The notes under the pieces are model-generated. The model did not search any database and was not told the DNA's origin. It worked only from the letters and a program-made list of their open reading frames with translations. From positions 2,953,166 through 3,017,165 of the forward strand of contig OZ241745.1 in NCBI GenBank assembly GCA_965201115.1: a stretch of DNA of 64,000 bases, given 5' to 3'. The translations under genes and the position numbers were made by a program. Source of the stretch: Alphaproteobacteria bacterium. GTDB lineage: Bacteria; Pseudomonadota; Alphaproteobacteria; UBA7887. Positions 16,790-55,764 of this stretch are shown here, piece after piece. The stretch's first letter is position 1, and each line of letters begins with the position of its first letter.

Positions 16790-17529
16790 TGCGATTCCTC
16801 CCGATACCGTTTCGCCTCTCGGGCGGCGCCGTCCCGACCCGGATACCGCGCCTCGTACCCGTAACGCGGGAATACGCCGACGGCCAGCTCGAGCCGGCGG
16901 TTGCCGATCGGCGGATGCCGCCCCGCCCCGCCCGATACCCGAGGCTCGATTCGCGAATCGTCCGCACCCGCGGCGCGCTTCCCGGGGGCGCGGGCGTCTC
17001 GCCCGCACGTTTCCGGGCGGCGTAGCGTCGGCGGGGAGGCGCTTGGCGTCCGCGCCGCGCTCCCGAGCGCCTCGCGGTCGCTTTCCGGGGCCGTCATGGC
17101 GGCACTATCGCCTCCCCCCGAACGGCGGTCAACGTGGCGCGGCGGGGGCGGGACGTCCGGGCGCCGTCGCGCCGAAGGCGCGGACTTCCCGGGTTGTCTA
17201 ATTCCGGCTACTCGGTCAACCCTCCTCCGGGTCCGTTCGCTGCCTTCCGTTCCGCCGGGAGCATGGTTGTCTGCGAAGTCATCGCCGTGCTTTCGAGTGG
17301 CGCGCTTCATGATGGCGTTCGTCAGCGTTGGCGTCCCAATGTGCGCGTCGCACTCCCGGACCGGCCTTGCCCTTTCGGGCGGGGGCGCGGTCCGACTTGC
17401 ATTCCAGGCAGCGGGATCGCCTCCGCTACCGTCCCGGCGGGGACGGGGCTTTCCGCCGAAGCGGAACCGTGTTGTCTCCTGTTCGTTGTTCAGCTGCCTC
17501 CGGGCGCGTTCGGGGCGCGCGGCGGCGGC

Positions 17530-19921: not shown

Positions 19922-20074
19922 CCGCGCGCCAGGGCGCGCTTCCCGGGATCGCAAGCGTCTCGACAGCCCCGAGCCCCGCGGATCCCCGCAATGCCCCGCC
20001 CGCTCCGGCGCGCTTCTTGGGTGCGCGGGCGTCTCGCCCGCACGTCGGCGACCCGCGCGGCGCCCGCCGGGGAG

Positions 20075-20160
20075 AGGCGCAACCCCGCCGAAGGCGGGGC
20101 CCGGGACCGCGGGCATCCTGCCCGCACGTTCCCGCACGCCGCGGCATTGCCGGGAAGGGC
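20075..20160. repeat. REP/MITE-like double-hairpin repeat unit (consensus core ccccgccgaaggcggggcccgggaccgcgggcatcctgcccgcacgtt)
   Basis: Copy of a family found at seven or more loci in the window. Translates as the spurious peptide RAGCPRSRAPPSAGL on the reverse strand. Confidence 0.5.
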
Positions 20161-20375: not shown

Positions 20376-20393
20376 CCCCCCCCCCCCCCCCCC
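20376..20393 (+). repeat. Homopolymeric poly-C(18) tract at the 5-prime end of the giant autotransporter gene (candidate slipped-strand phase-variation switch)
   Basis: 18 consecutive C, read as 6 Pro codons in ORFs 20286.. and 20356... Lies 20 nt upstream of ATG 20413. Confidence 0.6.
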
Positions 20394-20458
20394 GTGGCAG
20401 GCGGAATCTCGCATGGAAACGCTCGCTTCGGAGCATCGGCGCCGCGCTCGCGCCGGGG

Positions 20459-22810: not shown

Positions 22811-25800
22811 AGTCAATGGCGGCGGCGGCCTGGCGGCGACGGTCAAGGACGGCGGCACGGTTACGGGCGACATCCGCGTCGGCGGCAGCGGTTCGTTGAC
22901 GGCGATGGTCGAGGCCGGCGGCGCGGTGGAGGGGACGATACGCGACCCGCAGGCTTCGTTCACGGTTTCGGGCAGCGTCGGGCGCGTTCTCTATGCTTCG
23001 GGCGGAACGGTGACGGTGGCCGGGGGCGCGAAACTGACGGGCGTCTCCGGCACGGCCGCCGAGAGCACGGCGGGGGCGCTGACGGTCACGGTCCAAAACC
23101 GGGGCCGCGTCGAGGCCGACATCGAGTCCGGCGGGACGCTGATGGTTACCGTCAACGACGGCGGCGTGGTAACGGGGACGATAGAGGATCCGCAGGCTTC
23201 GTTCACGGTCGGGAGCGGGGCGCGCATCGGGCGCATTCTTTACACCGGCAGCAGCGGCGGGACGGTGACGGTGTCCGGCGGCGGGACGCTTACGGGCGTC
23301 GAGGGCGTGGCCGCCGAGAGCACGGACTCGGGGGGCGCGCTGACGGTCACGGTGAACGACAACGGCCGCGTCGAGGGCGACGTCAAGTCGGCCGGCACGC
23401 TGTCGGCGACCGTCGATGCCGGCGGCGTGGTTACGGGGACGATACACGACCCGCAGGCTTCGTTCACGGTTTCGGGCAGCGTCGGTCGCGTTCTCTATGC
23501 CTCGGGCGGAACGGTGACGGTGTCCGGCGGCGCGAAGCTGACGGGCGTCGAGGGCGTGGCCGCCGAGAGCACGGCCGGCGCGCTGACGGTTGCGGTGAAC
23601 GACAACGGCCGCGTGGAGGGCGATATCAAGTCGGGCGGCACGCTGTCGGCAACCGTCGATGCCGGCGGCGTGGTTACGGGAACGATACACAACCCGCAAG
23701 CTTCGTTCACGGTTTCGGGCAGCGTCGGTCGCGTTCTTTACGCCAGCGGCGGAACGGTGACGGTGTCCGGCGGCGCGAAGCTGACGGGCGTCGAGGGCGT
23801 GGCGGCGGAGAGCGCGGCGGGCGCACTGACGGTCACGGTGAACGACAACGGCCGCGTCGAAGGCGACGTCAAGTCGGCCGGCACACTGTCGGCGACGGTC
23901 AACGTCGGCGGCGTCGTGACGGGGACGATACACAACCCGCAAACGCCGTTCACGGTTTCGGGCAGCGTCGGGCGCGTTCTTTACGCCGGCGGCGGAGCGG
24001 TGACGGTATCCGCGGGCGGGACGCTGACGGGCGTCGAGGGCGTGGCCATCGAGAGCACAACCGGCGCGCTGACGGTCACGGTGAGCAACCGGGGCCGCGT
24101 CGAGGGCGGCATCGAATCGGGCGGGACGCTGACGGCGAACGTCATGGCCGGCGGCGTCGTGACCGGAACGCTCCGCAACCCGCAGAGTCCGCTCACGGTT
24201 TCGGGCAGTGTGGGGCGCATTCTCTATGCCCGCGCGAGCGGCGGGACGGTGACGGTCGCCGCCGGCGGCGCGGTAACGGGCGTCGAGGTCGATGGCGCAA
24301 CCGAGGCGATCCGCGGCAATGCGGGCAATCTCGACGTCACGGTGGCGGCGAGGGGCGCGGTCACGGGTCTCGTCGAGGGCCGCGGGCCGGGCAATCTGAA
24401 GGTTACGGTCGCCGGCTCGTTGGCGGGCGGCATTGCCGAGCGCGCCGCGGGCGATCTTGAGGTTTCGGTCGCCGGAACGGTTACGGGCGGCATTGTCGGC
24501 GCGGGCGCGGGCGAACACACGGTCACGGTGGCGTCCGGCGGCGCGGTTACGGGGACGGTACATTTGGCGACCGGCGCGGCGACCATCGCGGGCCGCGCGG
24601 CGCGCGTGCTTTACGACAACGGCGGCATGGCGACGGTCGCCGCGGGCGGCGAGATCGCGGGCGTCGATGTCGAGGGAACGATGGAGGCGATTCGCAACGA
24701 TGCGGGCAATCTCGAGGTCACGGTTGCGTCCGATGGGGAGGTTGCGGGGCGCATCGAGGATCGCGGCGCGGGCAATCTCGAGGTCGAGGTTTCCGGCGCG
24801 GTCGCGGGCGGCATCGTCGAACGCGAGGCGGGCAATCTGGACGTCACGGTGACGGCCAGCGGCGCGGTCACGGGCAACATCGAGGGCCGCGATGCGGGCA
24901 ATCTGAAGGCCGCGGTCTCCGGAAACGTAACCGGCGATATCGTCGAACGCGGGGCGGGCGATCTCGACGTCACGGTGTCGGCAACGGTCACGGGCGGCAT
25001 TGTCGGCGAGGGCGCGGGGGCGCACAAGGTGTCGGTGGAGTCCGCCGGCGCGGTAACAGGCACGGTGCGCCTGCCGGGGAACGCGGAGACGACGGTCGCG
25101 GGCACGGTGGGGCGCGTTCATTACGACAACGGAGGCGCGGTCACGGTCAACGCGAACGGCGAGATTGCGGGCCTCGAGATCGAGGGCGTCCGGGAGGCGG
25201 TCCGCGGCGACGCGGGGGATTTGGCGGTTACCGTTCACGGGACGGTAACGGGCAATATCGAGGCGCGCGGCGATGGCGACCTGACGGTGATGGTTTCGGA
25301 GACCGGGACGATTGCGGGGGAGATATTCGGTCGCGGCGGGGGCATGCATACGATCGAGATCGCGGACAAGGCGCGGGTTGTGGGCACGGTGCATAACCCG
25401 AAGCGGGGGACGACCATAAGCGGCGCGGTGGGCCGCGTTCTGTTCGACAACGGCGGCGCGCTGACGATTGCGGCGAGCGGTCGCGTCTCTGGCGTCGGCG
25501 GCGAGGCGATCCGCAGCGCGGCGGGCGACCTGGAGGTCGCGATTGCCGGCGAGGCGACCGGAAATGTTGAGAGCCGCGGCGGGGCGCTGGCGGCGACGGT
25601 AACCGGCACGGTCGAGGGCGACATACTGGGTCTCGGCGCCGGCGAGCACACGGTGGCGGTTCGCGGCGGCGGGATGGTTACGGGCACGGTGCGCCTGGCG
25701 GCGGGCGAGGCGGATGTGGAGCACGGCGCGGCCGGGCGCGTGCTGCTGGACCGGGGCGGGTCCGTGAAGGTCGGGGCGCGGGGCGAAATCAAGGGCCTCG

Positions 25801-28310
25801 AGGTCGAGGGCGTTCGGGAAGCGATCCGTTCCGACGCGGGAGACCTGACGGTGGCGATTGCGTCCGGCGGCGCGGTCAAGGGCCGCATCGAGGGGCGCGG
25901 CGCGGGCAACATGACCGTGAACGCGGGCGGCGCGGTGACGGGCGCCATCCTTGGCAAGGGCGCCGGTAGGCACGAGATCGCGGTCGCCTCCGGCGGCTCG
26001 GTTACGGGCGACATCGTCGATATGGAGGCCGGCGGCCTGGTCGCGACGGTCGCGGGTTCGGTTACGGGCGCAATTGAGGAGCGCGGCGCGGGGGACCTGA
26101 CGGTAACGGTTGCGGGCGCGGTTTCCGGGGATATCCGCGGCCTGGGCGCCGGCGTGCATCGGGTTACGGTTGCGTCCGGCGGTTCGGTTGCGGGCGCCAT
26201 CCGCGGCGCGGGCGCGGGTTCGCACGCAGCGACGGTCGCGGGCCGCGCGGCGCGCGTGCTCTACGAGAACGGCGGTTCGGTCACGGTCGCATCCGGCGGC
26301 GCGGTGTTGGGCGTCGGGACTTCGGACGGCGGTCGCGAGGCGATCCGCGGCGCGGCGGGCGACCTGACGGTGGACGTAGCGGCGATGGGGACCGTGGCGG
26401 GCGATATCCGCGGCGCGGGCGATGGCGATCTGAAGGTGGATGTGAGCGGCAAGGTCGAGGGCGGGATATTCGGCCTTGGCGGCGGCGAGCACGACGTTCA
26501 TGTGAAATCCGGCGGCTCGGTCGAAGGTCTCATCCACCTGGCCGCCAGCACGGTGACGGTCGAAGGGGCCGCCCGGAGCGTGCTGTTCGACCGCGGCGGC
26601 ACGGTGTCGGTCGGCGCCGGGGGGCGCCTGTCGAACCTCGACGGGCGTGCGGCGGTGCGCAGCGAAGCCGGCGATCTGATGGCGATGGTGAACGGCAATG
26701 TCACAGGCAATATCGAGGGCATGGGCGCCGGAGCGCTGATGGTCACGGTCGCCAACGAACTGACCGGCGGCGTCATCGGCGGCGACGGCGGCATGCACCG
26801 GCTGACGGTGGCGGCCGGCGGGACGTTCAAGGGGCACGTCGAGGGCCTGGAGGCCATTCGCATCGCCGGGCGCGCGGAAGCGGCGCGCCCGCTGACGGTT
26901 TCCGATGGCGGCGAGGTGACGGTCGCGGCTGGCGGCGTGCTCATGGGCGCGGAGGACGCGCAGGGCCGCCGCGTGGCGGTCTCCGTTGCAACGGGCGCGC
27001 TGAACATGACGGTCGAAGGGGAAGGCATGGTGCAGGGCGCCGTGGAGGCGCGCGACGCCGCCGCCGCCTCGACCGTGACGGTCGATGCCGGCGGCGCCAT
27101 CGACGGCCGCGTCGCGCTGGCGGGCGCCGGCAGCGAAGTCACGGTCGACGGCGCGGCGCAGAGCGTCGATGTGCCCCGGGGCGCGGTGACGGTGGGCGAG
27201 AACGGGCGCATCGCGGAGCCCGTCATCGGCGCCGAGACGGTAACGATACGTGCGGCGGCGGGCGAAACCGACGAGGAGGCGGCGCTGCGCCTGGGCGGCG
27301 GCCGCATCGACGCCGCCGGCGCGACGATTACGCTCAAGCGCCAGGGCCGCGTCGATTCGCGTCTCCGGATAACCCGCGACGGTCGCATCGAGGTGGGGCC
27401 GGCGCCGCGCCACCGCGTGTACGAAGCTCTGCCTTCGGCTCTGCTGGCGCTGAATGCACTGCCCGCCCACGGCGACCGTTTCGCCGCGGCGGGCGCGCCG
27501 CGCGGCGCGTTCGCGCGCCTCGACGCCGCCGGCGGCGACCGCCATCCGGCGTCGTCTGTCGCGCAGGCGCATCACGATTACCGCCGCTTCGGTTTCGAGG
27601 CGGGGATAGAGGGCGCGGCGGGCGAGCGCGGCGTGTTCGCGATCTCGGTTCATCATGTGCGCGGCCGCGCGGACGTGGACACGGACGCGGACACCGAGGC
27701 GGGCGGCGGCCGTGTCGAGATAACCGGCACGGGCGCGCGCATATCGGGCGCATGGCTGCCCGCGGAGAACGTCTATGTGAGCGCTCAGGCCGCGGCGACG
27801 CTGTACGAGACCGACCTCGATTCGGACGTGGCGCTCGAGGGCGCCCTTGCGCGGGACTTGTCGGGCCGCGGCTACGCCGCCGGCGTGGAGATCGGGCGGC
27901 GCCTCGACCTGGGCCGCGTAACGCTGACGCCGCGCGCGGGCGCCGATTGGTCGATGGTGGAGATGTCGTCGTTCACGGACTCCGTGAACGAGCGCGTGTC
28001 GCTGGACGCGGGCCGGCGCATAACGGCCCGCGCCGGCGTGCGCGCCGAGTCCGCCGCCCTCCCCGGCGGCGCCGGCGCCATGTTCGCAACGCTGGACCTT
28101 GAGCGCGAACTGTCCGGCGCAATGGAAACCACGGCGGCGGACCGCCCCTTCGAAGCCGAAGCGGAAGCGACATGGGCCCGCCTCGGCCTCGGCGCCGCCC
28201 ACGAATGGGCCGACGGCCGCATAGCCCTCCGCGCCAACGCCAACTACGCCGCCGCCCGCCACGGCAACCGAGACTTCAGCGGCAGCGCCGCACTCACCGT
28301 GCGCTTCTGA
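22809..28310 (+). CDS. Giant autotransporter adhesin, C-terminal segment: about 1,500 aa of tandem Gly/Val/Thr-rich passenger repeats plus autotransporter beta-barrel translocator (ends ...AALTVRF)
   Basis: Frame 0 is open from 22794 (first ATG at 22896). Repeats are of the type GGxVTGTIxDPQASFTVSGSVGRVLYASGGTVTVSGGAKLTGVEGVAAESTAGALTVTVNDNGRVEGD. C-terminal beta domain has a terminal aromatic residue. Confidence 0.7.
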   Translation, partial: SVNGGGGLAATVKDGGTVTGDIRVGGSGSLTAMVEAGGAVEGTIRDPQASFTVSGSVGRVLYASGGTVTVAGGAKLTGVSGTAAESTAGALTVTVQNRGRVEADIESGGTLMVTVNDGGVVTGTIEDPQASFTVGSGARIGRILYTGSSGGTVTVSGGGTLTGVEGVAAESTDSGGALTVTVNDNGRVEGDVKSAGTLSATVDAGGVVTGTIHDPQASFTVSGSVGRVLYASGGTVTVSGGAKLTGVEGVAAESTAGALTVAVNDNGRVEGDIKSGGTLSATVDAGGVVTGTIHNPQASFTVSGSVGRVLYASGGTVTVSGGAKLTGVEGVAAESAAGALTVTVNDNGRVEGDVKSAGTLSATVNVGGVVTGTIHNPQTPFTVSGSVGRVLYAGGGAVTVSAGGTLTGVEGVAIESTTGALTVTVSNRGRVEGGIESGGTLTANVMAGGVVTGTLRNPQSPLTVSGSVGRILYARASGGTVTVAAGGAVTGVEVDGATEAIRGNAGNLDVTVAARGAVTGLVEGRGPGNLKVTVAGSLAGGIAERAAGDLEVSVAGTVTGGIVGAGAGEHTVTVASGGAVTGTVHLATGAATIAGRAARVLYDNGGMATVAAGGEIAGVDVEGTMEAIRNDAGNLEVTVASDGEVAGRIEDRGAGNLEVEVSGAVAGGIVEREAGNLDVTVTASGAVTGNIEGRDAGNLKAAVSGNVTGDIVERGAGDLDVTVSATVTGGIVGEGAGAHKVSVESAGAVTGTVRLPGNAETTVAGTVGRVHYDNGGAVTVNANGEIAGLEIEGVREAVRGDAGDLAVTVHGTVTGNIEARGDGDLTVMVSETGTIAGEIFGRGGGMHTIEIADKARVVGTVHNPKRGTTISGAVGRVLFDNGGALTIAASGRVSGVGGEAIRSAAGDLEVAIAGEATGNVESRGGALAATVTGTVEGDILGLGAGEHTVAVRGGGMVTGTVRLAAGEADVEHGAAGRVLLDRGGSVKVGARGEIKGLEVEGVREAIRSDAGDLTVAIASGGAVKGRIEGRGAGNMTVNAGGAVTGAILGKGAGRHEIAVASGGSVTGDIVDMEAGGLVATVAGSVTGAIEERGAGDLTVTVAGAVSGDIRGLGAGVHRVTVASGGSVAGAIRGAGAGSHAATVAGRAARVLYENGGSVTVASGGAVLGVGTSDGGREAIRGAAGDLTVDVAAMGTVAGDIRGAGDGDLKVDVSGKVEGGIFGLGGGEHDVHVKSGGSVEGLIHLAASTVTVEGAARSVLFDRGGTVSVGAGGRLSNLDGRAAVRSEAGDLMAMVNGNVTGNIEGMGAGALMVTVANELTGGVIGGDGGMHRLTVAAGGTFKGHVEGLEAIRIAGRAEAARPLTVSDGGEVTVAAGGVLMGAEDAQGRRVAVSVATGALNMTVEGEGMVQGAVEARDAAAASTVTVDAGGAIDGRVALAGAGSEVTVDGAAQSVDVPRGAVTVGENGRIAEPVIGAETVTIRAAAGETDEEAALRLGGGRIDAAGATITLKRQGRVDSRLRITRDGRIEVGPAPRHRVYEALPSALLALNALPAHGDRFAAAGAPRGAFARLDAAGGDRHPASSVAQAHHDYRRFGFEAGIEGAAGERGVFAISVHHVRGRADVDTDADTEAGGGRVEITGTGARISGAWLPAENVYVSAQAAATLYETDLDSDVALEGALARDLSGRGYAAGVEIGRRLDLGRVTLTPRAGADWSMVEMSSFTDSVNERVSLDAGRRITARAGVRAESAALPGGAGAMFATLDLERELSGAMETTAADRPFEAEAEATWARLGLGAAHEWADGRIALRANANYAAARHGNRDFSGSAALTVRF

Positions 28311-28320: not shown

Positions 28321-28485
28321 AGCCGCAACCCCGCCGAAGGCGGGGCCCGGGACCGCGGGCATCCTGCCCGCACGTTGCCGCAGGCCGCGATATTGCTGGG
28401 AGCGGCGATCATCAAGCCCCTCTTGGCAGCATTTGTAGCGTTGGCAACGTGCGGGCGGGGATGCCCGCGGTCCCGGGCAGTCCGC
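28321..28485. repeat. REP/MITE-like repeat: one full unit plus an inverted partial unit (hairpin pair, possible terminator downstream of the autotransporter gene)
   Basis: aaccccgccgaaggcggggcccgggaccgcgggcatcctgcccgcacgttgccg ... gtgcgggcggggatgcccgcggtcccgggcag. Confidence 0.5.
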
Positions 28486-28502
28486 GCCTACGGCGCGAAC
28501 GG

Positions 28503-33032: not shown

Positions 33033-33108
<76 letters not shown>

Positions 33109-45954: not shown

Positions 45955-46030
45955 GCGCACACGCCAACCCCGCCGAAGGCGGGGCCCGGGACCGCGGCCT
46001 TCCAGGCCGCACGTTTCCGCGCGGCTCGGC
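45955..46030. repeat. REP/MITE-like repeat unit
   Basis: caaccccgccgaaggcggggcccgggaccgcggccttccaggccgcacgtttccgcg. Confidence 0.5.
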
Positions 46031-46276
46031 GTCGGCGGGAAAGCGCGAACGGCGCGTCCCTCACGGCGGCAGCCGTGGCAGTCGAGACGCGCAGGCGGGG
46101 CGCCCGCATCGCGATGCCGCGAAAGCCGCGCAGGAAACCCCTCGCAGCGTGTATTATCCGGGTTGCGCGGGCTGGCCGGAACGGGTATTAACCGTTGCCG
46201 CCTGCGGCCCGCCGGCGGCGCGGGCGCCGTTTATGCAGGACAACCGCGTTCGTCGGTAATCCGGGAAGAATACGGT

Positions 46277-47134
46277 ATGCGGGATATGAAAGAGCTCGAA
46301 ATCGACGGCGGCCTACTGCGCGATCGGTCGCCTCTGACGAGCTTTCTCGCCACCTTGGACGAGCTGGAAGCGCCTTGCAGCGTCGTGGCCTGCGGTCTGC
46401 TGTGCGCGGGCAAGAGCACGTTGCTCAACGCGCTTGCCGGACGGACAGGCGAGCCGTACTTCGCGACCGGCGCAGGCCGGACGACCCATGCGTGCAAGAG
46501 CCTTGACGACCGCGCCGGCTTCCGGTGGATCGACACTCCCGGCCTCGATGTGAGCGGCGAGGACGACGCGGAAGCCGAAAAAGCGATTCGCGCGGCCGAC
46601 GTGCTCTTGTTCGTGCATCACCCCGGGACCGGCGAACTGCACGAGGCCGAGGCGGATTTCCTGCAGGCCGTCGCGACGGGCGCGGACACGCGCCACGGCC
46701 TTGCCGAGCGCATGTGCGTGGCGCTGACCCACAAGGAGTCGATAAGCGCCGACGAACTCGGCCGGCTCAGGGACGCCGTTCGCCGGCAGGTCGCATCGGC
46801 GACAGGCGCCGACCCGGCGCTGTTTCCGGTGGCTTCCACCGTTTATCTCGGGGCAACGCGCAAGTTCCAGCCGAAATTGGTCGAATTCAGCGGCGTGCCC
46901 GCGCTTCGGACCCGTCTGATGCATGGCGCCGAAGGCTCCCGCGCCCGCCGGTGGAAGCGCGTCGCCAATCTTGAGGAAGAACTGCACCGGCGGATCGACG
47001 CGGAAATCGCGCATCGGGCCGGGCGGCGGCGCACGCTCGAACGCGAGATTGCCAATGTCGAGAAGGCGTTGCACGAAGAGTTCGCATCGTTTCTGGAGCA
47101 GCTGGACCAACGGCTTGCCGGCCTCGACGCGTAG
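46277..47134 (+). CDS. Small P-loop GTPase (dynamin/GIMAP-like G-domain; GxxxxGKS, DTPG)
   Basis: CGLLCAGKSTLLNALAG, WIDTPGLD, LTHKES. 285 aa. First gene of a lower-GC island. Confidence 0.6.
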   Translation: MRDMKELEIDGGLLRDRSPLTSFLATLDELEAPCSVVACGLLCAGKSTLLNALAGRTGEPYFATGAGRTTHACKSLDDRAGFRWIDTPGLDVSGEDDAEAEKAIRAADVLLFVHHPGTGELHEAEADFLQAVATGADTRHGLAERMCVALTHKESISADELGRLRDAVRRQVASATGADPALFPVASTVYLGATRKFQPKLVEFSGVPALRTRLMHGAEGSRARRWKRVANLEEELHRRIDAEIAHRAGRRRTLEREIANVEKALHEEFASFLEQLDQRLAGLDA

Positions 47135-47163
47135 CCGGAAGCGGAACAACGGAGAACGGAATC

Positions 47164-47565
47164 GTGTTTCTTGCCCCCCTCACCGACGCCCAGAAGCGGG
47201 CTTTCATGGCGCTCGCGGCCATGGTCGTCGATAGCGACGAACGGGTTACCCGACAAGAGCGCGAACTCATGGCCAGTCTGAGCGCCGAGATGGGCATGCC
47301 GGACGCGCCGGAAGGCATGGACCTCGCCGCCGCCGCGGCCGCGTTCGCCGACTGGCCCGGCAAGGTGCGCGCCATGCTCGAACTGATCGGCATCGCCCGC
47401 GCCGATTGCGATTTCGACAAGCGGGAAAGCGCGCTCATCCGCCGGATCGCCGAGGCGTTCGGGATCGCCCCCGGCGAGCTCGAAGTGATGGACGACTGGG
47501 TCTTCCGGCAGCTCGCCCTGGTGCGGGAAGCGAACTACCTGATAACCGAATTGCGGGAGGATTGA
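47164..47565 (+). CDS. TerB-like domain protein
   Basis: 133 aa. ALAAMVVDSDERVTRQERELMASL... and IARADCDFDKRESALIRRIAE resemble the TerB fold. GTG start with GGAGA ribosome-binding site. Confidence 0.5.
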   Translation: MFLAPLTDAQKRAFMALAAMVVDSDERVTRQERELMASLSAEMGMPDAPEGMDLAAAAAAFADWPGKVRAMLELIGIARADCDFDKRESALIRRIAEAFGIAPGELEVMDDWVFRQLALVREANYLITELRED

Positions 47566-47567
47566 CC

Positions 47568-48059
47568 ATGCCCCTGCCATTGTTCTGGATCCTGGGCGCG
47601 GCCGGCGTAGCAGCCGCTGCCGCCGCCACGGCTTGGGCGGCCTCGGATAACGACGAAGCTGTTACCGAGCCCGACGAGGCCGGCGAGTTGCGCGAACGGG
47701 AGGCGGAGCGTGATCGCGAGAAGCGGCGCGAGCGCGCCGAGCGCTGGAAAGAACGGGGATTGCACGACATGGCGGGCTGCCATTCCGCCTCCGGACGCAG
47801 CCCGTCCGGGCTGACATGCGCGGAGTACTGGCGGAGCGAGGCCGCGCCCGGCGCCGGGCAAGCGGACCGCGTCGAGAAAGCCCTGGACATGTTCCTGCCC
47901 AAGGACGGCCCGAGCGATGCGAAAAACGAGGCCGCCGCCCTGCTGCGGGAAGAAGACGATCTGAGGGCGATGAAGACGGCCGTGGCGGCGATGCGCGCGC
48001 GGGCGCAGGAACGTGAGGCCCAATCGCAATCGGAGCCGCCGCAGCGGAGCGAAGCATGA
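47568..48059 (+). CDS. N-terminally membrane-anchored charged coiled-coil protein
   Basis: MPLPLFWILGAAGVAAAAAATAWAA, then an E/R-rich helix. GGGAGG ribosome-binding site. Stop overlaps the next start. Confidence 0.45.
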   Translation: MPLPLFWILGAAGVAAAAAATAWAASDNDEAVTEPDEAGELREREAERDREKRRERAERWKERGLHDMAGCHSASGRSPSGLTCAEYWRSEAAPGAGQADRVEKALDMFLPKDGPSDAKNEAAALLREEDDLRAMKTAVAAMRARAQEREAQSQSEPPQRSEA

Positions 48060-49885
48060 GTTCGGCAGGCGACACGGGTGCGGTCGGACGCCCCGAATTC
48101 CTCGAGGCCATGAGCCGGCTTCAGGGCCGGTTCGACGAGGCGGGCGGGCAGGTCAAGTCGCAAGAGGCCGAATTCGACCGCGATTTGGACGATGCGATCG
48201 CGCGTATCGAGCGGGAGCCGCTCTCGCGGGAGGGTGGAGCGCTTCCGCCTCCCGTCGAGAAAGCCCTGCATGAAGCGAGAGAAATCGTCGATGCGGCCGT
48301 CATCGGCTGGCGGGAGCGTGTCGGGAAATACGACCGCAACACCGAATTCCGGCGCGACCACGGGGATTCGCTGCTGGTCTATGTCTATGGCTTGGTCAAG
48401 GCGGGCAAGAGCGCCCTCGGCAATTTCGTCGCCCATGGCTGCGAGCGCCCCGATGACGCGTTTGTCGCGACGCTGTCCGCCAGCGGGAGCGGCCCCGAGT
48501 TCTTCGTGCGCTCGGTTGCCTCGGGGGATCCGGACGCTATCGACAAGGCGAACGGGCGGCTCGCCCGGGCGCGACGGTTCCATACCGATGTCGAGGAGGC
48601 GACGGACCGCATCCAGGGGTTCAAGATGCCGGGGCTGACCTGGATCGACTCCCCGGGACTCGGGTCGGTCACGGAGGCAAACGGCAAACTCGCACGGGAG
48701 TATGTCGAAAGCGCCGACCTCGTTGTTGTCGCAATGAACAGCGCACAACCCGGCCGCAGGACCGAGCGCGACGAAGCGAGACGCCTGATGCGCTTGGGAA
48801 AACCGATGATGGTCTTGCTCACGCGCGCCGACAACATCGACATGGACGTGGACGAAAACGGCCGGATTGTCAAGACATTGGTCATGAAGTCCGCCGATGA
48901 TCGGCGGGATATGAAAGAATGGGTCGAATCGCAATTGAAGGAAGCGGTCCGGATCGAAGGTCGGAACGCGCCCCGAATCCCGCAAATAACAACGATATCG
49001 GTGCGTTATGCCGCGGAGCATCCGGATATCGATGGAGCGCGCGAGAGCGGCCTGTCGGAACTGTTCGGCCTGTTGAGCGAGGTCGCCGAAAGCGAAGGCG
49101 TGACCATGAAGCGGGAGGCCCCGGCCCGTATGTTTCGCGCCTTCGTCCGCGATATCGCCGGGGACGAGCAAAACTTCGGCATGGGCAACATCGTCGGGCG
49201 TCTGGACCGGGTCCGGCGGTCGATAGCCCGAAGCCGCGAAGGACACGAGGAACAGGGGCGGCAGGCGGGAGACCGAGCCGCACGGGATATCGAGGCGGCG
49301 ATCAATGAGGAAGTCGAGAGCCGTCGCAAGACTCTCGACAATGCAGGCCTCCACGAGGCAGTAAACAGACAGGCTCGCAAGATACTCGAACGGCGGGTGT
49401 CCGAGGCCGCGGCGGAGATGGTCAAGGATATCGACATGGAGATGCTATCTTTGGCAGCGATGGGGCAAGAACACGCGCCGGCGTTGAAGGTCGTCGCTAG
49501 CGTAGTGATAAAGCCGGATCGCGAGCGCCGCGAGCACCTTGCCTTCGGTGCCCCCGTTGGCTTGACCGGGACAATAGCAGACGTCGTGATAGGATTTTTG
49601 TTCGGCGGTCTGGTCGGGGCCGTCGCGGGAGCCGCTGCGGAAGCGCCCAGCGGCGCCACGACAAACGGCTCCGCCGCCGGTTCCAGAGTCGAGTACATCG
49701 ACAACGCCGCCGAGGTTGCGAAAGAACTGGCGATCATTAAGAGCAACGAAGTGCGGAAAGCAGCCTCGGAGGCGTTCGCGCGTTTGAACGATGAGGTTCT
49801 GAAACCTCTGGAAACGCGCATCGACAATATCATCGACGGCCTTGAGGAATTCCGAAGCAAATGGCAGAAGGAGATCGCGCGATGA
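48056..49885 (+). CDS. Bacterial dynamin-like protein 1 (GTPase, stalk, membrane paddle)
   Basis: 609 aa. G1 GLVKAGKSALGN, G3 WIDSPGLG, G4 LLTRAD. Hydrophobic paddle VIGFLFGGLVGAVAGAAA near the C-terminus. Confidence 0.75.
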   Translation: MSSAGDTGAVGRPEFLEAMSRLQGRFDEAGGQVKSQEAEFDRDLDDAIARIEREPLSREGGALPPPVEKALHEAREIVDAAVIGWRERVGKYDRNTEFRRDHGDSLLVYVYGLVKAGKSALGNFVAHGCERPDDAFVATLSASGSGPEFFVRSVASGDPDAIDKANGRLARARRFHTDVEEATDRIQGFKMPGLTWIDSPGLGSVTEANGKLAREYVESADLVVVAMNSAQPGRRTERDEARRLMRLGKPMMVLLTRADNIDMDVDENGRIVKTLVMKSADDRRDMKEWVESQLKEAVRIEGRNAPRIPQITTISVRYAAEHPDIDGARESGLSELFGLLSEVAESEGVTMKREAPARMFRAFVRDIAGDEQNFGMGNIVGRLDRVRRSIARSREGHEEQGRQAGDRAARDIEAAINEEVESRRKTLDNAGLHEAVNRQARKILERRVSEAAAEMVKDIDMEMLSLAAMGQEHAPALKVVASVVIKPDRERREHLAFGAPVGLTGTIADVVIGFLFGGLVGAVAGAAAEAPSGATTNGSAAGSRVEYIDNAAEVAKELAIIKSNEVRKAASEAFARLNDEVLKPLETRIDNIIDGLEEFRSKWQKEIAR

Positions 49886-51462
49886 AGAACGATGGAACCC
49901 CGATACGCGAAACGCTGTCGGAAGCCGCCTCCATACTGCAGAAATATCTGGGCGCCGCTGAGGTCGAGGACCTGCGCGCGTTCGTTGAATCTCGCCTCGA
50001 CGACGGGAAGCCCACCGCGATGGTGTACGGCATATACAATTCGGGAAAGAGCACGTTGCTCAACGCGCTTTGCGGCCGGGAGCTGGCCCGGGTGGCCAGC
50101 CGGCCTGAAACCGACCGCATAACCCCGTATGTCTGGGAGGGTACGGAGATTCTCGACACGCCGGGGATCGACGCGCCGCAGGAGCACGAATGGGTCAGTC
50201 GCGAAGCGCTCGACCGCACGGACGTCATCCTCTTCGTCATGGATTCCTCGTCCACATTCGAGGAAGCCGCCGTTTACGACGAAATTATCGGAATACTCGA
50301 TCGGAACAAACCACTCATGATCGTGGTCAATAACAAGGACGGGTTGTCGAGAGCGGACGAAAACTACATCCGTATTTGCGACAAGATACAGGAGAACCTG
50401 GCCGCCGCGGCCGCGCGGCGGGGCCTGCCTCCCGATCGCGCCTCTCCGCCGATCCGGATGGCGGACGCCAGGACCGGACTCAAGGGGCGTCTGGCAAACA
50501 AGCTGAAACTGGTATATGCCAGCGGCCTCGCCGACCTTGAAGCGGACCTGAAGCGGATGCTGGGCGCCGCCGGGTTTCACGACGTGGTCAATACCGTCGG
50601 AAGGCGATTGCTTGACGATCTCGACCGCGCGCTTGTCAAGGCGTCGCCGAGCAACGCCGACGACGGGTCGGCCCGCCGGATTGCCGACGGCGAAGCCGGA
50701 TTGCACGGCGAGAAAAGCCGGGTAGAGAGCGCGCTTTCTCAGGAGCGGCTTCGCGCGGTTGCGCAGTTCCGGCGGCGCGCGCTCGCAGTGTTCGATAGCC
50801 AGCGGCCGAAAGAACTCCTCGGAGGGGCGAAAGAACTTCTCGGAGCTTGTGTCGAATTCAGCGAAGCGGTAAGGCGCGCCATCGCGTGCGAACTGGCGGC
50901 GACGCGCAAGCGCTTCCCCGAACTGGGCCCGCCGCCGATGGACGATTCCGGCGCGATGGGGGCCGCCGCCGAGGAAATCGCGGCCGGCGCCCCTCGGGAA
51001 GACGGGGCCCGGGATGCCGACGGCGCGCCGGATACCGAGCCGGAGGTTGTGAGACGGCTAATCTTGGGCGCCGTCGCGGCCATCGCCAAGTTCTTCCCGA
51101 AGACACTGGGCCGCTTCATACCGCTTGTTGGGCCGATTGTAGAGGTTGGCGTGGCGGGATGGCGATATTATTCCAATCTCCAAAGGGAGAAGGAAAAGAA
51201 AGAGGCGATGCAGCGCGCAGCGCGGCTCTGGGCCAATCACATCGAGGAGTCGGCCGACCGCCTGAACGACAAGGCGAAAGAGATCGTTCGTCGGAGCGTG
51301 GACGACGCCTTCGCGCCGGCCGAGGCGGATCTGCGCGCCAAGAGGGAGCAGTTGGATAAGGAAGCCCGCGCGATGGCCGAGGATCGCACAATCCTCAACG
51401 CTTGCCGCGAGCGGATGAAGCGGCATCTGGAAGCCATGCCGCCCGCGCCGCGCGTCGCATAA
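49882..51462 (+). CDS. Bacterial dynamin-like protein 2
   Basis: 526 aa. G1 GIYNSGKSTLLNAL, G3 LDTPGID, G4 VNNKD. Hydrophobic segment AAIAKFFPKTLGRFIPLVGPIVEVGVAGW. AAGGAG ribosome-binding site. ATGA overlap with DLP1. Confidence 0.75.
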   Translation: MKNDGTPIRETLSEAASILQKYLGAAEVEDLRAFVESRLDDGKPTAMVYGIYNSGKSTLLNALCGRELARVASRPETDRITPYVWEGTEILDTPGIDAPQEHEWVSREALDRTDVILFVMDSSSTFEEAAVYDEIIGILDRNKPLMIVVNNKDGLSRADENYIRICDKIQENLAAAAARRGLPPDRASPPIRMADARTGLKGRLANKLKLVYASGLADLEADLKRMLGAAGFHDVVNTVGRRLLDDLDRALVKASPSNADDGSARRIADGEAGLHGEKSRVESALSQERLRAVAQFRRRALAVFDSQRPKELLGGAKELLGACVEFSEAVRRAIACELAATRKRFPELGPPPMDDSGAMGAAAEEIAAGAPREDGARDADGAPDTEPEVVRRLILGAVAAIAKFFPKTLGRFIPLVGPIVEVGVAGWRYYSNLQREKEKKEAMQRAARLWANHIEESADRLNDKAKEIVRRSVDDAFAPAEADLRAKREQLDKEARAMAEDRTILNACRERMKRHLEAMPPAPRVA

Positions 51463-51480: not shown

Positions 51481-51700
51481 GCGGGGCGCCAACATGCAGA
51501 CTTCCAGCCTGCCCGCGCGCCGAACGCCTGGGAGCGCGGGCGTCCTGCCCGCACGTCTCAGTGTCTGTACCGAAATGCTTACCCCGCCGAAGGCGGGGCC
51601 TGGGACCGCGGGCTTCCAGCCCGCACGTTCCCGCAAGCCGCGATGATGGCGAGGAGGCGCGCCTGCGGCGCCCCGCCCGGCGCCGCCCGCCGAACGGGCC
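51481..51700. repeat. REP/MITE-like repeats (two or more units) downstream of the dynamin island
   Basis: ...ctgcccgcacgtctcag...ccccgccgaaggcggggcctgggaccgcgggcttccagcccgcacgttcccgcaag.... Confidence 0.5.
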
Positions 51701-51721: not shown

Positions 51722-53400
51722 AACCGACCGTTAGCCCGCATTTCTCATACGGGTGGTTGTCGTGCGGTTTGTGCGTCGTTGGTTATCGTGCGTGCGTGTT
51801 TTCGTGGTCGGGGGGCTTGGCGGGCATTTTCGGGGCGCGTTGGGGCGGTCCGCCGTTTGGCGGTGGGCCGCGTTCCGGGCTGTTCCTGCGTTGTTGAGGG
51901 GAAGGGCGAGAGTGGCCGCGTTACGCCGCGGCGGCGGATAATCGTTGGCAGGCGATACGGAACTCGCGCTGGAAGGGATGCGCGGCGTTCATGGCGATCT
52001 TGACGCGGCGCACGGTGACGCGGACCCAAGCGCCGATCTTGAGCAGTTTCAGGCGCAGGCTCCCGCATGTGGCGACCGCCAGTTCGGTGTAGTCGAGGCC
52101 GATGCGGCGCAGTGCGCACAGCAACACATAAGCCATGGACGCGAACCACAGGCGCAGCTGGTTGGCCCGCATGGCCCGCGTCGACGTGCGGTCGGCGAAC
52201 AAGTCGAGTTGGCACTCCTTGATCCGGTTCTCCATCTCGCCGCGTTGGCAGTAAAGCCGCTCGTAGAGATGCCGGGCGCGGACCCGATGGGTTGCAATCG
52301 AGGTGACGACGAAACGCGGGTTGGCCTTGCCGTGGGTCCACTCGGCCTTGGCGACGACGCGGCGCGCGCAGCTCCAGCTGTCGCGCGTCCTCCACATGAA
52401 GTCCTTGAAGCGGCGTTGCGGCTTGCCCGAACCCGCGCTGTGCGCTTGCGCCGCCGCCAGTTCGGTCTCGACTTCCGCCGCCAGACGGGGGTTCCGCGCC
52501 AAGCCCAACAGGTAATCGACGCCGTTGGCCTCGCACCACGCCATCAGCGCCTCGCGGGCGAACCCCGAATCGGCGCGCACCATTATCCGCACGCGGGGCC
52601 AATGCCGCCGCAACCGCGACACAATCCGCTCAACAGTCTCCACGGCCCCGGCCGCCCCATCCTCATTCGCCGGGCGCAACCGCGCCGCCAAAAGATGACG
52701 ACCGCAAGTCGCATAAAGCGGAAGATAGCAATAGCCGCCGTAGTAGCCGTGGAAAAAACGACCCTCCTGGCGACCGTGAAGCCGATCGTCCGTGGCGTCG
52801 AGATCGATAACCAAGCGAGCCGGGGGCCGCTTGTGCGCCTCCACAAACAGTGTCAGGAACAAATCCTCAATCGCCGAGCCGTCATGCGCGATCCGGCAAT
52901 ACCGCGACGGCCCCGCGCCCCCCAACTCAAGGCGGTTCAGCGTCGATTTGCCCGCAAGCGGCGCACAGTCCGAACGACGCGACGCCAACTTCCCCGCCAA
53001 CACGGCCATGACCGGATCGTGACGCAACGCATCGTGGTCGTTCAGGTCCTCATATCCCAATGCGATCCCGAACACGCGCTGCATGACCAGCGTCCGAACA
53101 TCGTGCTCGACAAGATGACGCGCACGCCCATCGGTGAAACAGGCCGCAAACCGATCGACCAGACCCACCGCCGCATCCGCCCGGCCAAGCAACAATGCCC
53201 CCGCGTCCGACGTCACCGTCCCGCCGTCGAACGCCGCCACAACCGCGCGACCGTCGACCGGTTGAAAACCGCCCAGCGCCGTGCTACACTCCGTCTGCAT
53301 CGGGGAACACCTCCGTGCCGCGATATGTGCATACTCAACAACACTATATCGCACACAGAGCCCCGATGCCCCAAACCCGTATGAGAAATGCGGGTTAGCC
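51722..53400 (-). mobile_element. IS1380 family insertion sequence with about 25-bp imperfect terminal inverted repeats
   Basis: Left IR at 51722-51747 (cgttagcccgcatttctcatacggg); right IR at 53376-53401 (reverse complement ggctaacccgcatttctcatacggg). Single transposase ORF. Inserted within the REP cluster. Confidence 0.75.
51921..53300 (-). CDS. IS1380 family transposase (DDE)
   Basis: 459 aa, MQTECSTALGGFQPVDGRAVVAAFDGGTVTSDAGALLLGRAD... typical of IS1380. Confidence 0.85.
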   Translation of the reverse strand: MQTECSTALGGFQPVDGRAVVAAFDGGTVTSDAGALLLGRADAAVGLVDRFAACFTDGRARHLVEHDVRTLVMQRVFGIALGYEDLNDHDALRHDPVMAVLAGKLASRRSDCAPLAGKSTLNRLELGGAGPSRYCRIAHDGSAIEDLFLTLFVEAHKRPPARLVIDLDATDDRLHGRQEGRFFHGYYGGYCYLPLYATCGRHLLAARLRPANEDGAAGAVETVERIVSRLRRHWPRVRIMVRADSGFAREALMAWCEANGVDYLLGLARNPRLAAEVETELAAAQAHSAGSGKPQRRFKDFMWRTRDSWSCARRVVAKAEWTHGKANPRFVVTSIATHRVRARHLYERLYCQRGEMENRIKECQLDLFADRTSTRAMRANQLRLWFASMAYVLLCALRRIGLDYTELAVATCGSLRLKLLKIGAWVRVTVRRVKIAMNAAHPFQREFRIACQRLSAAAA

Positions 53401-53474: not shown

Positions 53475-54545
53475 ATGACCGAAGCACACGCCGCCGCCGT
53501 CCCCGCCGACGGCGAGCCGCGCGCAGCCGCCGCGCCCGACAACGCCGCCGCCGCGCCCACCGAACCCGAAACCCAACCCCCCGGCGACCCCCTCCGCCAC
53601 AACCGCGGAAGCCGATCCACAATCGCCGACCTCCCCAACACCGTCCGAGCCGATATCTGCCGCGAAATCCGCGCGGGACCCCCCGACACCGCCATCGCCG
53701 AAACCCTCCGCGCGCGCGGATACCCCGTATCCCGATCCGCCATATACCGCTTCCGCAAAGCCGCCGCCGACAGCCTCGCCCAATGGTCCGAAATCCGCGA
53801 CGCCGCCGCACTCTGGAGCGAAGGCGGAACCCACGAAGCCCTCGCCGAAATGCTCCGCGTCGCCGCCTTCGCCATCGCCGCGCGCATCGACCCCGCCGCC
53901 CCCGATGCCGCCGACAACACCCGCGGCATCGCCCGCATGGTGCGCGCCATCCGCGACCTCGCCGCCGCCGAAGCCGCGCGGAAAACCGCCGCCGCCCAGG
54001 CCGGCCCCCGCCGCGGCGCGCCCGGTTCCATCGACGACCCCCGCCTGCCCTTGCTCCCGCCCCCGAACACGTGGGACGCCGACGCCCAGGCCGCCGCCAA
54101 CCCCGGCCCCCCCAAGCCGCCCCGCCGCCCGTGGACCGACCGGGACTGGCTGGAATACGACAGACACATCCAGGAGGGCGAACGCAAGGCCCGCGAAGCC
54201 GAACGCGAACGCCGCGAGGCCGAACGCGAATACGACCCCGCGTACGACCCCGAAACCGCCGAACGCCCCGCCGCCGAAGCCCCCCGAGCCCCGCGGAGCC
54301 CCGCAATGCCCCGCAACGCTGCCGAAGGCGCGAACTGCCCGGGACTGCGGGCGTCCCGCCCGCACGTTCCCGCAAGGCGCGATGTCGGCAGGGAAGGCGC
54401 GCCCGCCCGCCCCGGGCCCGGCGGATCCCCGCAATGCCCCGCAACCGCCCCCCGGAACCGCCGGGCCCGACCGCCCCGCGACCGCCGAAGCCCCGCCCGC
54501 CGCCGCCCCGCCCGCCTCGAACAACCGAAACGGCAGCAATGCTGA
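53475..54545 (+). CDS. DUF3486-like (phage Mu gp27-like) HTH protein, probable prophage remnant; C-terminus runs into the REP array
   Basis: STIADLPNTVRADICREIRAGPPDTAIAETLRARGYPVSRSAIYRFRKA. Residues beyond about 54290 are REP-derived. Confidence 0.4.
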   Translation: MTEAHAAAVPADGEPRAAAAPDNAAAAPTEPETQPPGDPLRHNRGSRSTIADLPNTVRADICREIRAGPPDTAIAETLRARGYPVSRSAIYRFRKAAADSLAQWSEIRDAAALWSEGGTHEALAEMLRVAAFAIAARIDPAAPDAADNTRGIARMVRAIRDLAAAEAARKTAAAQAGPRRGAPGSIDDPRLPLLPPPNTWDADAQAAANPGPPKPPRRPWTDRDWLEYDRHIQEGERKAREAERERREAEREYDPAYDPETAERPAAEAPRAPRSPAMPRNAAEGANCPGLRASRPHVPARRDVGREGAPARPGPGGSPQCPATAPRNRRARPPRDRRSPARRRPARLEQPKRQQC

Positions 54546-54945
54546 GCGCCTGTACCGAAATGCTTGCCCCGCCGAAGGCGGCGCCCGGGACCGCGGGCAT
54601 CCTGCCCGCACGTTTCCGGCAGGCGCGATGTCGGCAGGGAAGCACGCCCGCCGCCCCCCGCTCCCCGGCCCCCGCGGCATCGAGACGCGCGCGCGAGACG
54701 CACACGCCAACCCCGCCGAAGGCGGGGCCCGGGACCGCGGGCATCCTGCCCGCACGTTCCCGCAAGGCGCGATGGCGGCAGGGAAGGCGCGAACGTCCCG
54801 GTCGCGCCCGCCCCGGGCCCGGCGGAGCCCCGCAATGCCCCGCAACCGGCCCCGGAACCGCCGGGCGCGAACGTCCCGCGACCGCCGCCGTCCCCGCCCG
54901 CACGTTTCCGCGCCGCGCGATGTCGGCACGAAAGCGCGAACGGAC
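54290..54945. repeat. Array of five or more degenerate REP/MITE-like units (not CRISPR)
   Basis: Repeated ccccgccgaaggcgg(g/c)gcccgggaccgcgggcatcctgcccgcacgtt(c/t)ccgcaaggcgcgatg(t/g)cggcagggaagg with GC-rich variable linkers. Confidence 0.55.
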
Positions 54946-55067
54946 AAGATGCCCACCGATCCCGGCCGTACCGATAGCCGCCGAATTCCGGTACAGGCTC
55001 TCAATGATCGCAAACACCGGCGGGCGGTGCGCGAAGACCGCGACTCCCCGGCAACATCGCGCCCGGC

Positions 55068-55140
55068 GAAAACGTGCGGGCGGGGACGCCTGCGCTCCCA
55101 GGCCCCGCCTTCGGCGGGGTTGCGCGCCCCGAACGGTCGG
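55068..55140. repeat. REP/MITE-like unit in inverted orientation
   Basis: aaacgtgcgggcggggacgcctgcgctcccaggccccgccttcggcggggtt. Confidence 0.5.
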
Positions 55141-55158
55141 TGTCGGCGGCCCTCGGGA

Positions 55159-55764
55159 TTACTTCCGGCGCGCGGCGAAGGCGGCGTAGTCGGCGGGGAT
55201 GTCGACGTCGAAGGCCAGGCCGGGGCGATCGACGAAGACGGGGCGCAGGCCGCGGCGGCGCGCTTCGCGCTCGTGCGCGGCGGCGCTGTCGGCGCCGAAG
55301 CGAAACCGGAACGCGCGCACAGCAGGCACAAGCAGCGCATTCGTGCCGTGGCCCGCGCGGTCGCGCGCGATGGGCGCCGCGCCGCGCCGCGCGCCCGCCG
55401 CCAACAACAGGCGGACGTCGGCCGGCGACAGGAAGGGCAGGTCCGCCGGCAAAACGAGCAGCGCCGCCGCGCCGCCGGCGCGGGCGGCGCGCAGGGCGCG
55501 CCCGAGCGCGCGGTTCAGCCCGCGGCCCGGCGCCGCGAGCGCATCGGCGCCCAGCGCCCTGGCCAGCGCCAGCGCGTCCGCGCCGTCGCTCACCGCCAGA
55601 ACGCGGCCCGGCGCCGCGCGCCGCGCCGTCGCCAGCGTGCGCCGCAGGAAGAACGCATTGAGCGCGCGCCGCTCGCGCGCGCCGAGTATGCCGGAGAGAC
55701 GGGATTTCCCGCGGCCCAGCGCCTTCGCCGGAACCGCCACGCGCACCCGCGCGCGCAGCGTCAC
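55159..55764 (-). CDS. cofC: 2-phospho-L-lactate (phosphoenolpyruvate) guanylyltransferase, F420 biosynthesis
   Basis: 201 aa. VAVPAKALGRGKSRL...LLVLPADLPFLSPADV (MobA-like nucleotidyltransferase fold). Adjacent to cofD. Confidence 0.7.
   Translation of the reverse strand: MTLRARVRVAVPAKALGRGKSRLSGILGARERRALNAFFLRRTLATARRAAPGRVLAVSDGADALALARALGADALAAPGRGLNRALGRALRAARAGGAAALLVLPADLPFLSPADVRLLLAAGARRGAAPIARDRAGHGTNALLVPAVRAFRFRFGADSAAAHEREARRRGLRPVFVDRPGLAFDVDIPADYAAFAARRK

Follow-up and report, generated by a model that had tools for sequence, protein, structure and literature searches.

A mosaic family of two-hairpin, REP-like repeats at gene ends in an alphaproteobacterial genome

Repetitive extragenic palindromes (REPs) are defined as palindromes of 20-50 nt preceded by a conserved tetranucleotide (PMC8266576). 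Those associated with REP-associated tyrosine transposases (RAYTs) include TGTGGGAGCGGGCaTGCCCGCGAA in Pseudomonas putida and GTAGGAGCGCGCTCGCGCGCGA in Xanthomonas (Nunvar 2010; PMC2817692). Di Nocera et al. described tagged REPs in eight phyla that lie mostly downstream of genes, contain G-T pairs suggesting transcription, and are sometimes found within genes such as those for pseudouridine synthases (PMC3733652). The insertion sequence (IS) ISPpu9, of the IS110/IS492 family, occupies one REP position in all of its seven copies in P. putida (PMC8450116). Here we describe a family of short hairpin repeats in a 64,000-nt stretch of alphaproteobacterial DNA (contig OZ241745.1; hereafter the window), which a sequence-only reading had likened both to REPs and to miniature inverted-repeat transposable elements (MITEs). 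We found that the family is real and that its units combine a REP-type core with a second hairpin and several linker motifs, mostly at the ends of genes.

Hairpin counts in the window were far above shuffle expectation. The sequence CCCCGCCGAAGGCGGGG occurred in seven copies at 0-1 mismatch and in nine at ≤2, against 0.28 expected from shuffles, and GCGGGCATCCTGCCCGC in seven copies at ≤2 mismatches, against 0.22. A covariance model of the core, R1, was built on 10 copies from the window and seven from other genomes and run with filters off. It recovered 14 core copies in the 64 kb, 13 of them at E<1e-8 and the best at about 1e-12. Eleven were on the plus strand (16980, 20015, 20099, 28345, 45984, 51526, 51598, 54337, 54583, 54727 and 54874) and three on the minus strand (255-290, 28443-28478 and 55068-55103), in agreement with the sequence-only reading that copies occur in both orientations at gene ends. 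The copy at 54874 was decayed (E about 1e-3), and the next-ranked match in the window reached E 0.04. A repeat finder returned an 86-nt family at 20075, 28321, 45960, 51574, 54313, 54559 and 54703, with a partial copy at 16956. R1 confirmed every locus of the earlier reading, which had overlooked the cores at 16980-17014 and 20015-20049 and a half-unit at 17168-17193 that is interrupted by an IS110-family element. The copy it had given as 28321-28485 is present, and is actually two units inverted to each other.

Genes were placed with a codon-bias picker of open reading frames (ORFs) and with Pfam scans, and all copies lay outside confident genes, except in the tail of a Gp27-like ORF. R1 found no unit in 28.5-45.9 kb or 55.2-64 kb of the window. 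The units concentrate at the edges of accessory DNA, namely the ISs, toxin-antitoxin genes, an autotransporter, a dynamin/TerB island and the Gp27 remnant. At gathering score, Rfam 15 matched nothing window-wide but one tRNA gene (33036-33108, minus strand), leaving the units without a match, and in 54200-55200 it gave zero matches at E≤1. Comparison contigs and loci were fetched and labelled L003-L047, of which L018 and L039 are from the same species as the window. Core density was four in 12.7 kb of L039 and one to three in 10.3 kb of L040.

The core is about 35 nt long. It has a tag, GGGA(C/G)C, a perfect 7-bp G+C stem, GCGGGCN, a loop of 3-4 nt, TCC or TCT(C), the return stem NGCCCGC and a tail, ACGT. 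Over 51 distinct copies, 98.3% of stem cells were paired, with 17 double (compensatory) changes and none of 500 shuffles equal to this, in an alignment that had been fitted to R1, which favours pairing. The closing pair was A-T in 34 copies, G-C in 11 and T-A in three, and a second pair also switched. Across the whole unit, 95.9% of cells were paired, compared with 30-49% when the partners were slid. RNAalifold further placed an outer 5-bp helix, CGGGA/TYCCG, around the stem (nt 42-70 of the unit, for example 54730-54764). Nine cells of this helix deviated from the commonest pair, and eight of the nine were G-U wobbles that pair on the sense strand only.

A second hairpin lies exactly 10 nt 5' of the stem at nine of the 14 intact cores and in the IS110-truncated half-unit at 17168. 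Its variant A, CCCCGCC-GAA-GGCGGGG, was found in seven copies. Variant B, CGCGCC-GWA-GGCGCG followed by RACTKCC, occurs at 17168, 28472 (minus strand) and 54318, and is one compensatory C-G to G-C switch away from variant A. This upstream hairpin was never seen without a core, whereas cores exist without it. Many cores are followed by a tail of about 30 nt, CCCGCAAGGCGCGATGTCGGCAGGGAAGGCGCG. Two linker motifs also recur: M1, CGGAKCCCCGCAATGCCCCGC, in four copies, and M5, GCCTGTACCGAAATGCTT, in two direct copies and one inverted. The modules are combined differently from unit to unit, and the units stand as singlets or in irregular head-to-tail clusters. Two other descriptions of the anatomy were rejected: a single long hairpin spanning the whole unit, by weak folding z-scores and inconsistent pairing, and a 461-bp MITE bounded by a 19-nt inverted repeat at 54543/54985, as that motif is the M5 module before hairpin A in two units. 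The features of the window that bear on the family are as follows.

255-290, minus strand: REP core without upstream hairpin (R1 44.7 bits, E 7.6e-10), 158 nt downstream of an NHase_alpha-like ORF (448-852).
16980-17014, plus strand: REP core, variant GCGGGCG-TCT-CGCCCGC (R1 49.3 bits), in a divergent spacer, vapBC-like genes/IS110.
17168-17193, plus strand: hairpin variant B (CGCGCC-GAA-GGCGCG) with linker GACTTCCCGGG, severed by IS110; from sequence comparison.
17194-18795 (approximate ends), minus strand: IS110-family IS in a unit tag (Pfam DEDD_Tnp_IS110 and Transposase_20; transposase 17664-18689), compared with the L039 copy.
18796-18815, plus strand: decayed REP stem with ACGTCG tail, the other half of the IS110-split unit, compared with the intact stem in L039.
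19933-20160, plus strand: cluster after the YhgA-like gene, with a partial unit 19933-19967, M1 19979-19999, core 20015-20049 and a full unit.
20075-20160, plus strand: the full unit of that cluster, hairpin A 20083-20099, core 20099-20133.
28321-28406, plus strand: full unit, 10 nt past the autotransporter stop, hairpin A 28329-28345 (18 nt past the stop), core 28345-28379.
28436-28502, minus strand: full unit abutting the TonB-receptor stop, hairpin B 28472-28497 (5 nt past the stop), core 28443-28478.
45960-46045, plus strand: full unit after the TPR (BatC-like) gene, with two compensatory stem changes (GCGGCCT/AGGCCGC), at the same site in L018.
51526-51659, plus strand: core 51526-51560, M5 51563-51580 and full unit 51574-51659, after the dynamin-like gene.
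51735-53394, minus strand: IS1380-family IS (DDE_Tnp_1_4), outside the repeat family, with inverted repeats CCCGCATTTCTCATACGGG and a TTAG duplication at 51731-51734 and 53395-53398.
53475-54545, plus strand: orphan Mu Gp27-like ORF, whose last ~85 codons (from ~54290) traverse repeat modules.
54276-54945, plus strand: five-unit irregular head-to-tail mosaic cluster with four cores (one weak) and one decayed unit.
54276-54403, plus strand: cluster unit A, M1, hairpin B and core 54337.
54404-54541, plus strand: cluster unit B, M1 and a decayed core.
54542-54685, plus strand: cluster unit C, M5, hairpin A and core 54583.
54686-54804, plus strand: cluster unit D, hairpin A and core 54727.
54805-54945, plus strand: cluster unit E, M1 and weak core 54874.
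55040-55126, minus strand: full unit after the CofC-like gene, hairpin A 55103-55119 (39 nt past the stop), core 55068-55103.

The largest cluster had been read as five or more degenerate tandem units at 54290-54945. The unit count stands, as four cores and one decayed unit, and the arrangement is an irregular cluster and not a regular tandem: core spacings at 54276-54945 were 246, 144 and 147 nt, and TRF detected no long period. The spurious ORFs with a common peptide were also found again. The peptide RAGCPRSRAPPSAGL occurred exactly three times in minus-strand translations, where it translates hairpin A and the core within long spurious ORFs.

The position of the units relative to genes was strongly patterned. 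Nine independent unit loci were distinguished, and eight of them lie directly downstream of a gene, all eight oriented in the sense of that gene (P = 0.004 under random orientation). These genes encode NHase_alpha-like (-), YhgA-like (+), autotransporter (+), TonB-dependent receptor (-), TPR/BatC-like (+), dynamin-like GTPase (+), Gp27-like (+) and CofC-like (-) products. At seven of these loci the hairpin or core follows the stop codon by 5-63 nt; at the eighth, the NHase_alpha-like ORF, it does so by 158 nt. The ninth locus (16980 and 17168) occupies the divergent spacer between the vapBC-like pair and the YhgA-like gene. Two inverted core pairs are possible among the 14 (28345+/28478- and 54874+/55103-, with spacers of 64 and 158 nt); both lie between convergent genes, each unit adjoining its own gene. 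Canonical Rho-independent terminators were absent from the units, a scan of the window giving nine sites against 11.3 expected, and no T run follows the unit hairpins. A C-rich Rho-loading site was rejected as well, the sense-strand C excess being small (skew -0.15 to +0.03). We infer from the orientations that units are tolerated or kept only in sense at gene 3' ends.

Compared with the 'GTAG-1' type REPs of Pseudomonas and Xanthomonas, the repeat has the same order of parts: a tag that ends in GG-GA, then a spacer, then a perfect G+C palindrome and last a conserved 3-nt tail. The stem GCGGGCA/TGCCCGC is nearly equal in P. putida REPs and in CTGGGAGCGCGGGCGTCCTGCCCGCACG at 51526 of the window. 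Both are also extragenic, dense, variable by compensatory stem changes and targeted by the IS110 family. The tag in the window is (C/T)GGGA(C/G)C, mostly GGGACC, and in other phyla GGA(G/A)C; it resembles the Pseudomonas tag GTGG-GA and not GTAG. In contrast to Pseudomonas REPs, the repeat has C and not G as the first tag base, two extra bases between tag and stem, and a TCC/TCT loop; it occurs mainly as singlets or head-to-tail and not as inverted pairs, and RAYT genes were absent from the loci searched.

The resemblance extends to composite REP elements. Enterobacterial bacterial interspersed mosaic elements (BIMEs), like the repeat, join REP cores to other short conserved motifs in variable clusters at gene ends; among the roles reported for them are mRNA stabilisation, attenuation and altered translation of the gene upstream. 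BIMEs alternate REP with inverted REP, whereas the units of a cluster here run in one direction (54337, 54583, 54727 and 54874 are all plus-strand copies), and their accessory motifs bear no relation to those of BIMEs. Thus a mosaic with conserved linkers is present and the alternation is not. Likewise, the inverted REP pair of a REPIN (REP doublet forming a hairpin; Bertels and Rainey 2011) was not found in the window, where the dominant two-hairpin unit joins the core to a hairpin other than an inverted REP. Inverted doublets were found for the core in Acidobacteriota, Chloroflexota, Magnetospirillum and metagenome loci. Among alphaproteobacteria, the intergenic mosaic elements of Rhizobium (RIMEs; Osteras 1995) are likewise about 100 bp long with two palindromes; we claim no relationship. 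Integron attC sites were considered and rejected, as inspection of the aligned units showed no R''/R' core sites (RYYYAAC ... GTTRRRY) and the flanks, a 1804-aa autotransporter and a six-gene operon, are not cassettes. REP and BIME repeats, their siting at gene ends and their use by IS110 elements are established, and the two-hairpin mosaic appears to be undescribed.

The core itself was found far outside this lineage. Its exact 22-mer CGCGGGCATCCTGCCCGCACGT was present, among the matches listed, in at least 12 contigs of representative genomes from at least four phyla, where we estimate about 0.07 chance matches in such a collection at even base composition. The hosts were Blastocatellia, Terriglobia, other Acidobacteriota, Planctomycetota, Chloroflexota and Magnetospirillum, with G+C contents from 43 to 63%. 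A 26-mer with the GGAG tag was found in 18 JGI metagenome contigs (peat/soil; up to 64% G+C), and the pre-stem bases were GGA(G/A)C in nine of the 12 contigs listed. Most of these copies stand as inverted doublets: at many sites the partner lies 10-150 nt off, its stem altered by compensatory changes, in the arrangement of a REPIN; the core otherwise stands in runs of hairpins with a common TCC/TCT loop and differing stems. In two Blastocatellia loci (L006 6958-6992 and L013 5163-5197) the core falls in frame inside an RluA-like pseudouridine synthase ORF. The 22-mer had no match in IMG/VR (2.9 million viral contigs), two units had none among PLSDB plasmids, and the species-specific 26-mer of the hairpin-core junction had none in JGI metagenome contigs. 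A full-text literature search gave no text match to the core sequence, and the supplements of REP surveys yielded nothing.

Next to the units, two kinds of IS were present, and they differ in their relation to the repeat. The IS110-family element splits a unit within its tag, at a point that lies after CCCGGG and before the stem, so that hairpin B-GACTTCCCGGG is on one side of the element and the decayed stem on the other. A copy with 98.9% identity (L039 9908-11496) is inserted at the same position of another unit, whose stem is intact and whose outer flanks are unrelated. The unit tag is the insertion point of this element. As with ISPpu9, a fixed position in a repeat is used, here in two loci and within the tag between CCCGGG and the stem; this likeness to ISPpu9 concerns the IS and not the repeat. 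Subterminal inverted repeats, TAATTCCGG/CCGGAATTA, are also present in the element, and the roughly 470 nt that follow its transposase gene are non-coding.

The IS1380-family element (DDE_Tnp_1_4 transposase, E 6e-147; 19-bp inverted repeats; 4-bp TTAG duplication) had been described as inserted in the largest cluster. It in fact sits outside any unit, beginning 75 nt beyond the unit at 51574-51659; about 900 nt and one gene separate it from the 54.3-kb cluster that follows. An identical transposase was found in eight further contigs (within L040-L047). In four of these the insertion site is a different one, in non-repeat DNA between CTAG-like tetranucleotides. Because these copies are YTAG-flanked in non-repeat DNA, the element targets YTAG and not the repeat. 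In this G+C-rich genome the YTAG/CTAG tetranucleotide is a rare one. Of the two IS1380 flanks in L042, one matches the window and the other does not, which suggests an IS-associated rearrangement. The idea that the repeats serve as a context for IS insertion thus holds for the IS110-family element, at two loci, and fails for the IS1380-family element.

Strains of the species differ exactly at the units, in unit number, homology breakpoints and IS110 insertions. L018, with 98% identity over the Bat operon, retains the units after the TPR gene and the dynamin-like gene, and at the latter a third unit is joined head-to-tail to the second. L039 has a regular head-to-tail array with a 100-nt period, made up of hairpin A, core and M1 and confined to one strand. 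In L042, homology to the window begins within a unit and the DNA beyond is unrelated. UvrC of the window is 98% identical to an ENA metagenome protein and 76-83% identical to proteins of metagenome-assembled chromosomes of 2.9-3.6 Mb; the relatives named by UvrC are 'MAG Alphaproteobacteria / Rhodospirillaceae'. No core copy was found in about 109 kb of three such relatives around uvrC and the Bat operon (UvrC and TPR proteins 76-83% identical). The dynamin-like GTPase/TerB island comprises five genes (46163-51462) after the Bat operon and is absent from a relative with an 80% identical TPR/BatC protein. Two strains of the species share 72-98% identity per 500 nt in the island, against 96-99% in the Bat operon. 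A REP-bounded recombination block around the island was rejected, as identity to L018 varies per gene (72-98%) with no step at the units.

Taken together, we consider the family best explained as a REP-type element in a lineage-specific mosaic comparable to BIMEs, with putative spread by a Y1 enzyme and a putative role in the 3' untranslated region (UTR), at a probability of roughly 0.7. The REP-like reading holds because the core is a tagged perfect palindrome, extragenic, multi-copy and in both orientations, because its units form gene-end mosaics, and because it lies near the RAYT-associated REPs of Pseudomonas. Under it, a RAYT-type (TnpA-REP) HUH/Y1 enzyme, whose gene would lie elsewhere in the genome, would move units as folded single-stranded DNA (PMC8266576), and local tandem duplication would then build clusters. 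Units in sense at gene ends would be transcribed into the 3' UTR, where the hairpins may act as a 3'-end barrier or attenuator, as in enterobacterial REPs and BIMEs. We propose this RNA-level role because of the sense orientation, the wobble-only variation of the outer helix and the lack of ordinary terminators.

Several observations weigh against this explanation. The check for a RAYT gene proposed by the sequence-only reading took in the window plus fetched loci of about 0.5 Mb in total and found none: the HUH...Y...NP motif had no regex match in this DNA, Pfam scans of most called genes in it gave no RAYT, and tblastn with an E. coli RAYT gave only a chance match (E 0.64) inside a REP cluster of L024. 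As RAYTs are single-copy and the search had this extent, the absence says little. The tag, CTGG/CCGG-GA, is not the canonical GTAG/GTGG, and in one studied system cleavage was lost when the fourth tag base was mutated. Most units here are singlets or head-to-tail, unlike the inverted pairs of BIMEs and REPINs. Folding of whole units was marginal, with z from -1.3 to -1.8 against shuffles and +0.9 for one unit. G-T pairs are also fairly stable in DNA, and since DNA tolerates them too, the wobble argument is weak. Finally, no pair of empty and filled sites was recovered, so that mobility and the exact unit ends are matters of inference.

The MITE half of the original label supposes a deletion derivative of a DDE-type IS, moved in trans through terminal inverted repeats and leaving duplications. 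The unit length of 80-100 bp, the two orientations and the nearby ISs are as such an element would have them, and the 5' half of the upstream hairpin is weakly complementary to the tail (CCCGCCGA/TCGGCGGG), with a matching T-A change in one copy. However, this putative terminal pairing is broken in two of the three informative copies, in alignments with flanks no inverted repeats above 8 nt recurred consistently at the termini and no direct repeats bordered the units, and head-to-tail units abut without duplications. Neither IS of the window has ends in common with the unit, and the conserved part is an internal hairpin of REP architecture that is found across phyla without the flanks. We therefore regard a MITE as very unlikely, and only the REP half of the label stands. 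Hardly credible is the idea that units are by-products of the IS110-family element, either copies of its ends or excision footprints. At both loci the element is indeed bordered by unit halves, and the blastn match of its two copies includes them. Yet these copies differ far more in the bordering halves (two mismatches in 26 on one side and indels on the other) than in the IS body (about 99% identical), 12 of the 14 cores have no IS110 nearby, and the core in other phyla occurs without this IS.

Non-mobile 3'-UTR elements of the host, that is terminators without a U tract or mRNA stabilisers kept alike by selection and gene conversion, would account for the sense orientation at eight of eight gene-end loci, the closeness to stop codons, the absence of canonical terminators at gene ends and the G-U variation of the outer helix. 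Against them, no T run stands behind the hairpins, units also occur in a divergent promoter region (16980 and 17168), up to five stand behind one gene, and copy number varies between strains. Relatives lack a copy after the same operon, and most conserved operon ends in the window lack a unit, so that we think this account improbable as a whole. Chance likeness in G+C-rich, low-complexity DNA, which the sequence-only reading had itself raised as the possible undoing of its claim, might be suspected from the 70.7% G+C of the window and the long spurious ORFs that traverse the repeats. But 7-9 matches were found where shuffles gave 0.2-0.3, covariance-model E values reached 1e-12, the spacing is fixed and paired positions are conserved with compensatory changes; the probability of chance is negligible.

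Some neighbouring genes have features of their own. The Mu Gp27-like gene (Pfam E 6e-11) has no adjoining phage genes, and the plus strand of its region is unusually C-rich (GC skew -0.14, AT skew +0.26). For ORF 448-852 (minus strand, 134 aa), similarity to nitrile hydratase alpha is confined to the C-terminal part of that protein and falls just short of the Pfam cut-off (E 8e-6, 25.8 bits against 27.2), which is the pattern of NHLP-type peptide precursors. Toxin-antitoxin-like pairs were placed at 5890-7151 (plus strand; Xre/MbcA-type antitoxin and RES-domain toxin) and 15984-16800 (minus strand; a PIN, VapC-like, gene with a small ORF upstream). The giant autotransporter region (20414-28310) has two overlapping frames, 20459-24460 and 22896-28310, and a run of 16 C at 20378-20393 lies about 20 nt before the ATG of a signal-peptide-like ORF. 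The frame split and C run could be phase variation, a frameshift or a homopolymer sequencing error. An exact-sequence look-up of the dynamin-like and YhgA-like proteins returned no record.

For work on these genomes, the repeats are an annotation hazard, through long spurious ORFs with the same peptide and the repeat-derived C-terminal extension of the Gp27-like gene, and we attribute contig breaks in short-read assemblies of this species to the family. It also provides a compact case for asking whether REP-type hairpins persist at gene ends through RNA function. Most of what we describe is ordinary biology; the exception is a core nearly unchanged in distant bacterial phyla, which hints at horizontally moving REP systems. 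As a tentative and rather doubtful reading, a single near-invariant REP lineage may have crossed Acidobacteriota, Planctomycetota, Chloroflexota and Alphaproteobacteria by horizontal transfer and later been remodelled into an RNA-selected two-hairpin unit. Horizontal spread is suggested because the core is near-invariant across phyla yet absent from the nearest sampled relatives, and RNA-level remodelling because of the eight-of-eight sense orientation and the G-U-only variation of the outer helix. To our knowledge, the REPIN-RAYT pairs described so far are vertically inherited. If the reading is true, a REP system and its enzyme would be moving horizontally, unlike those pairs. A cognate Y1 transposase, should the core prove to have one, would take REP-RAYT biology, so far studied in Gammaproteobacteria, well beyond that class.

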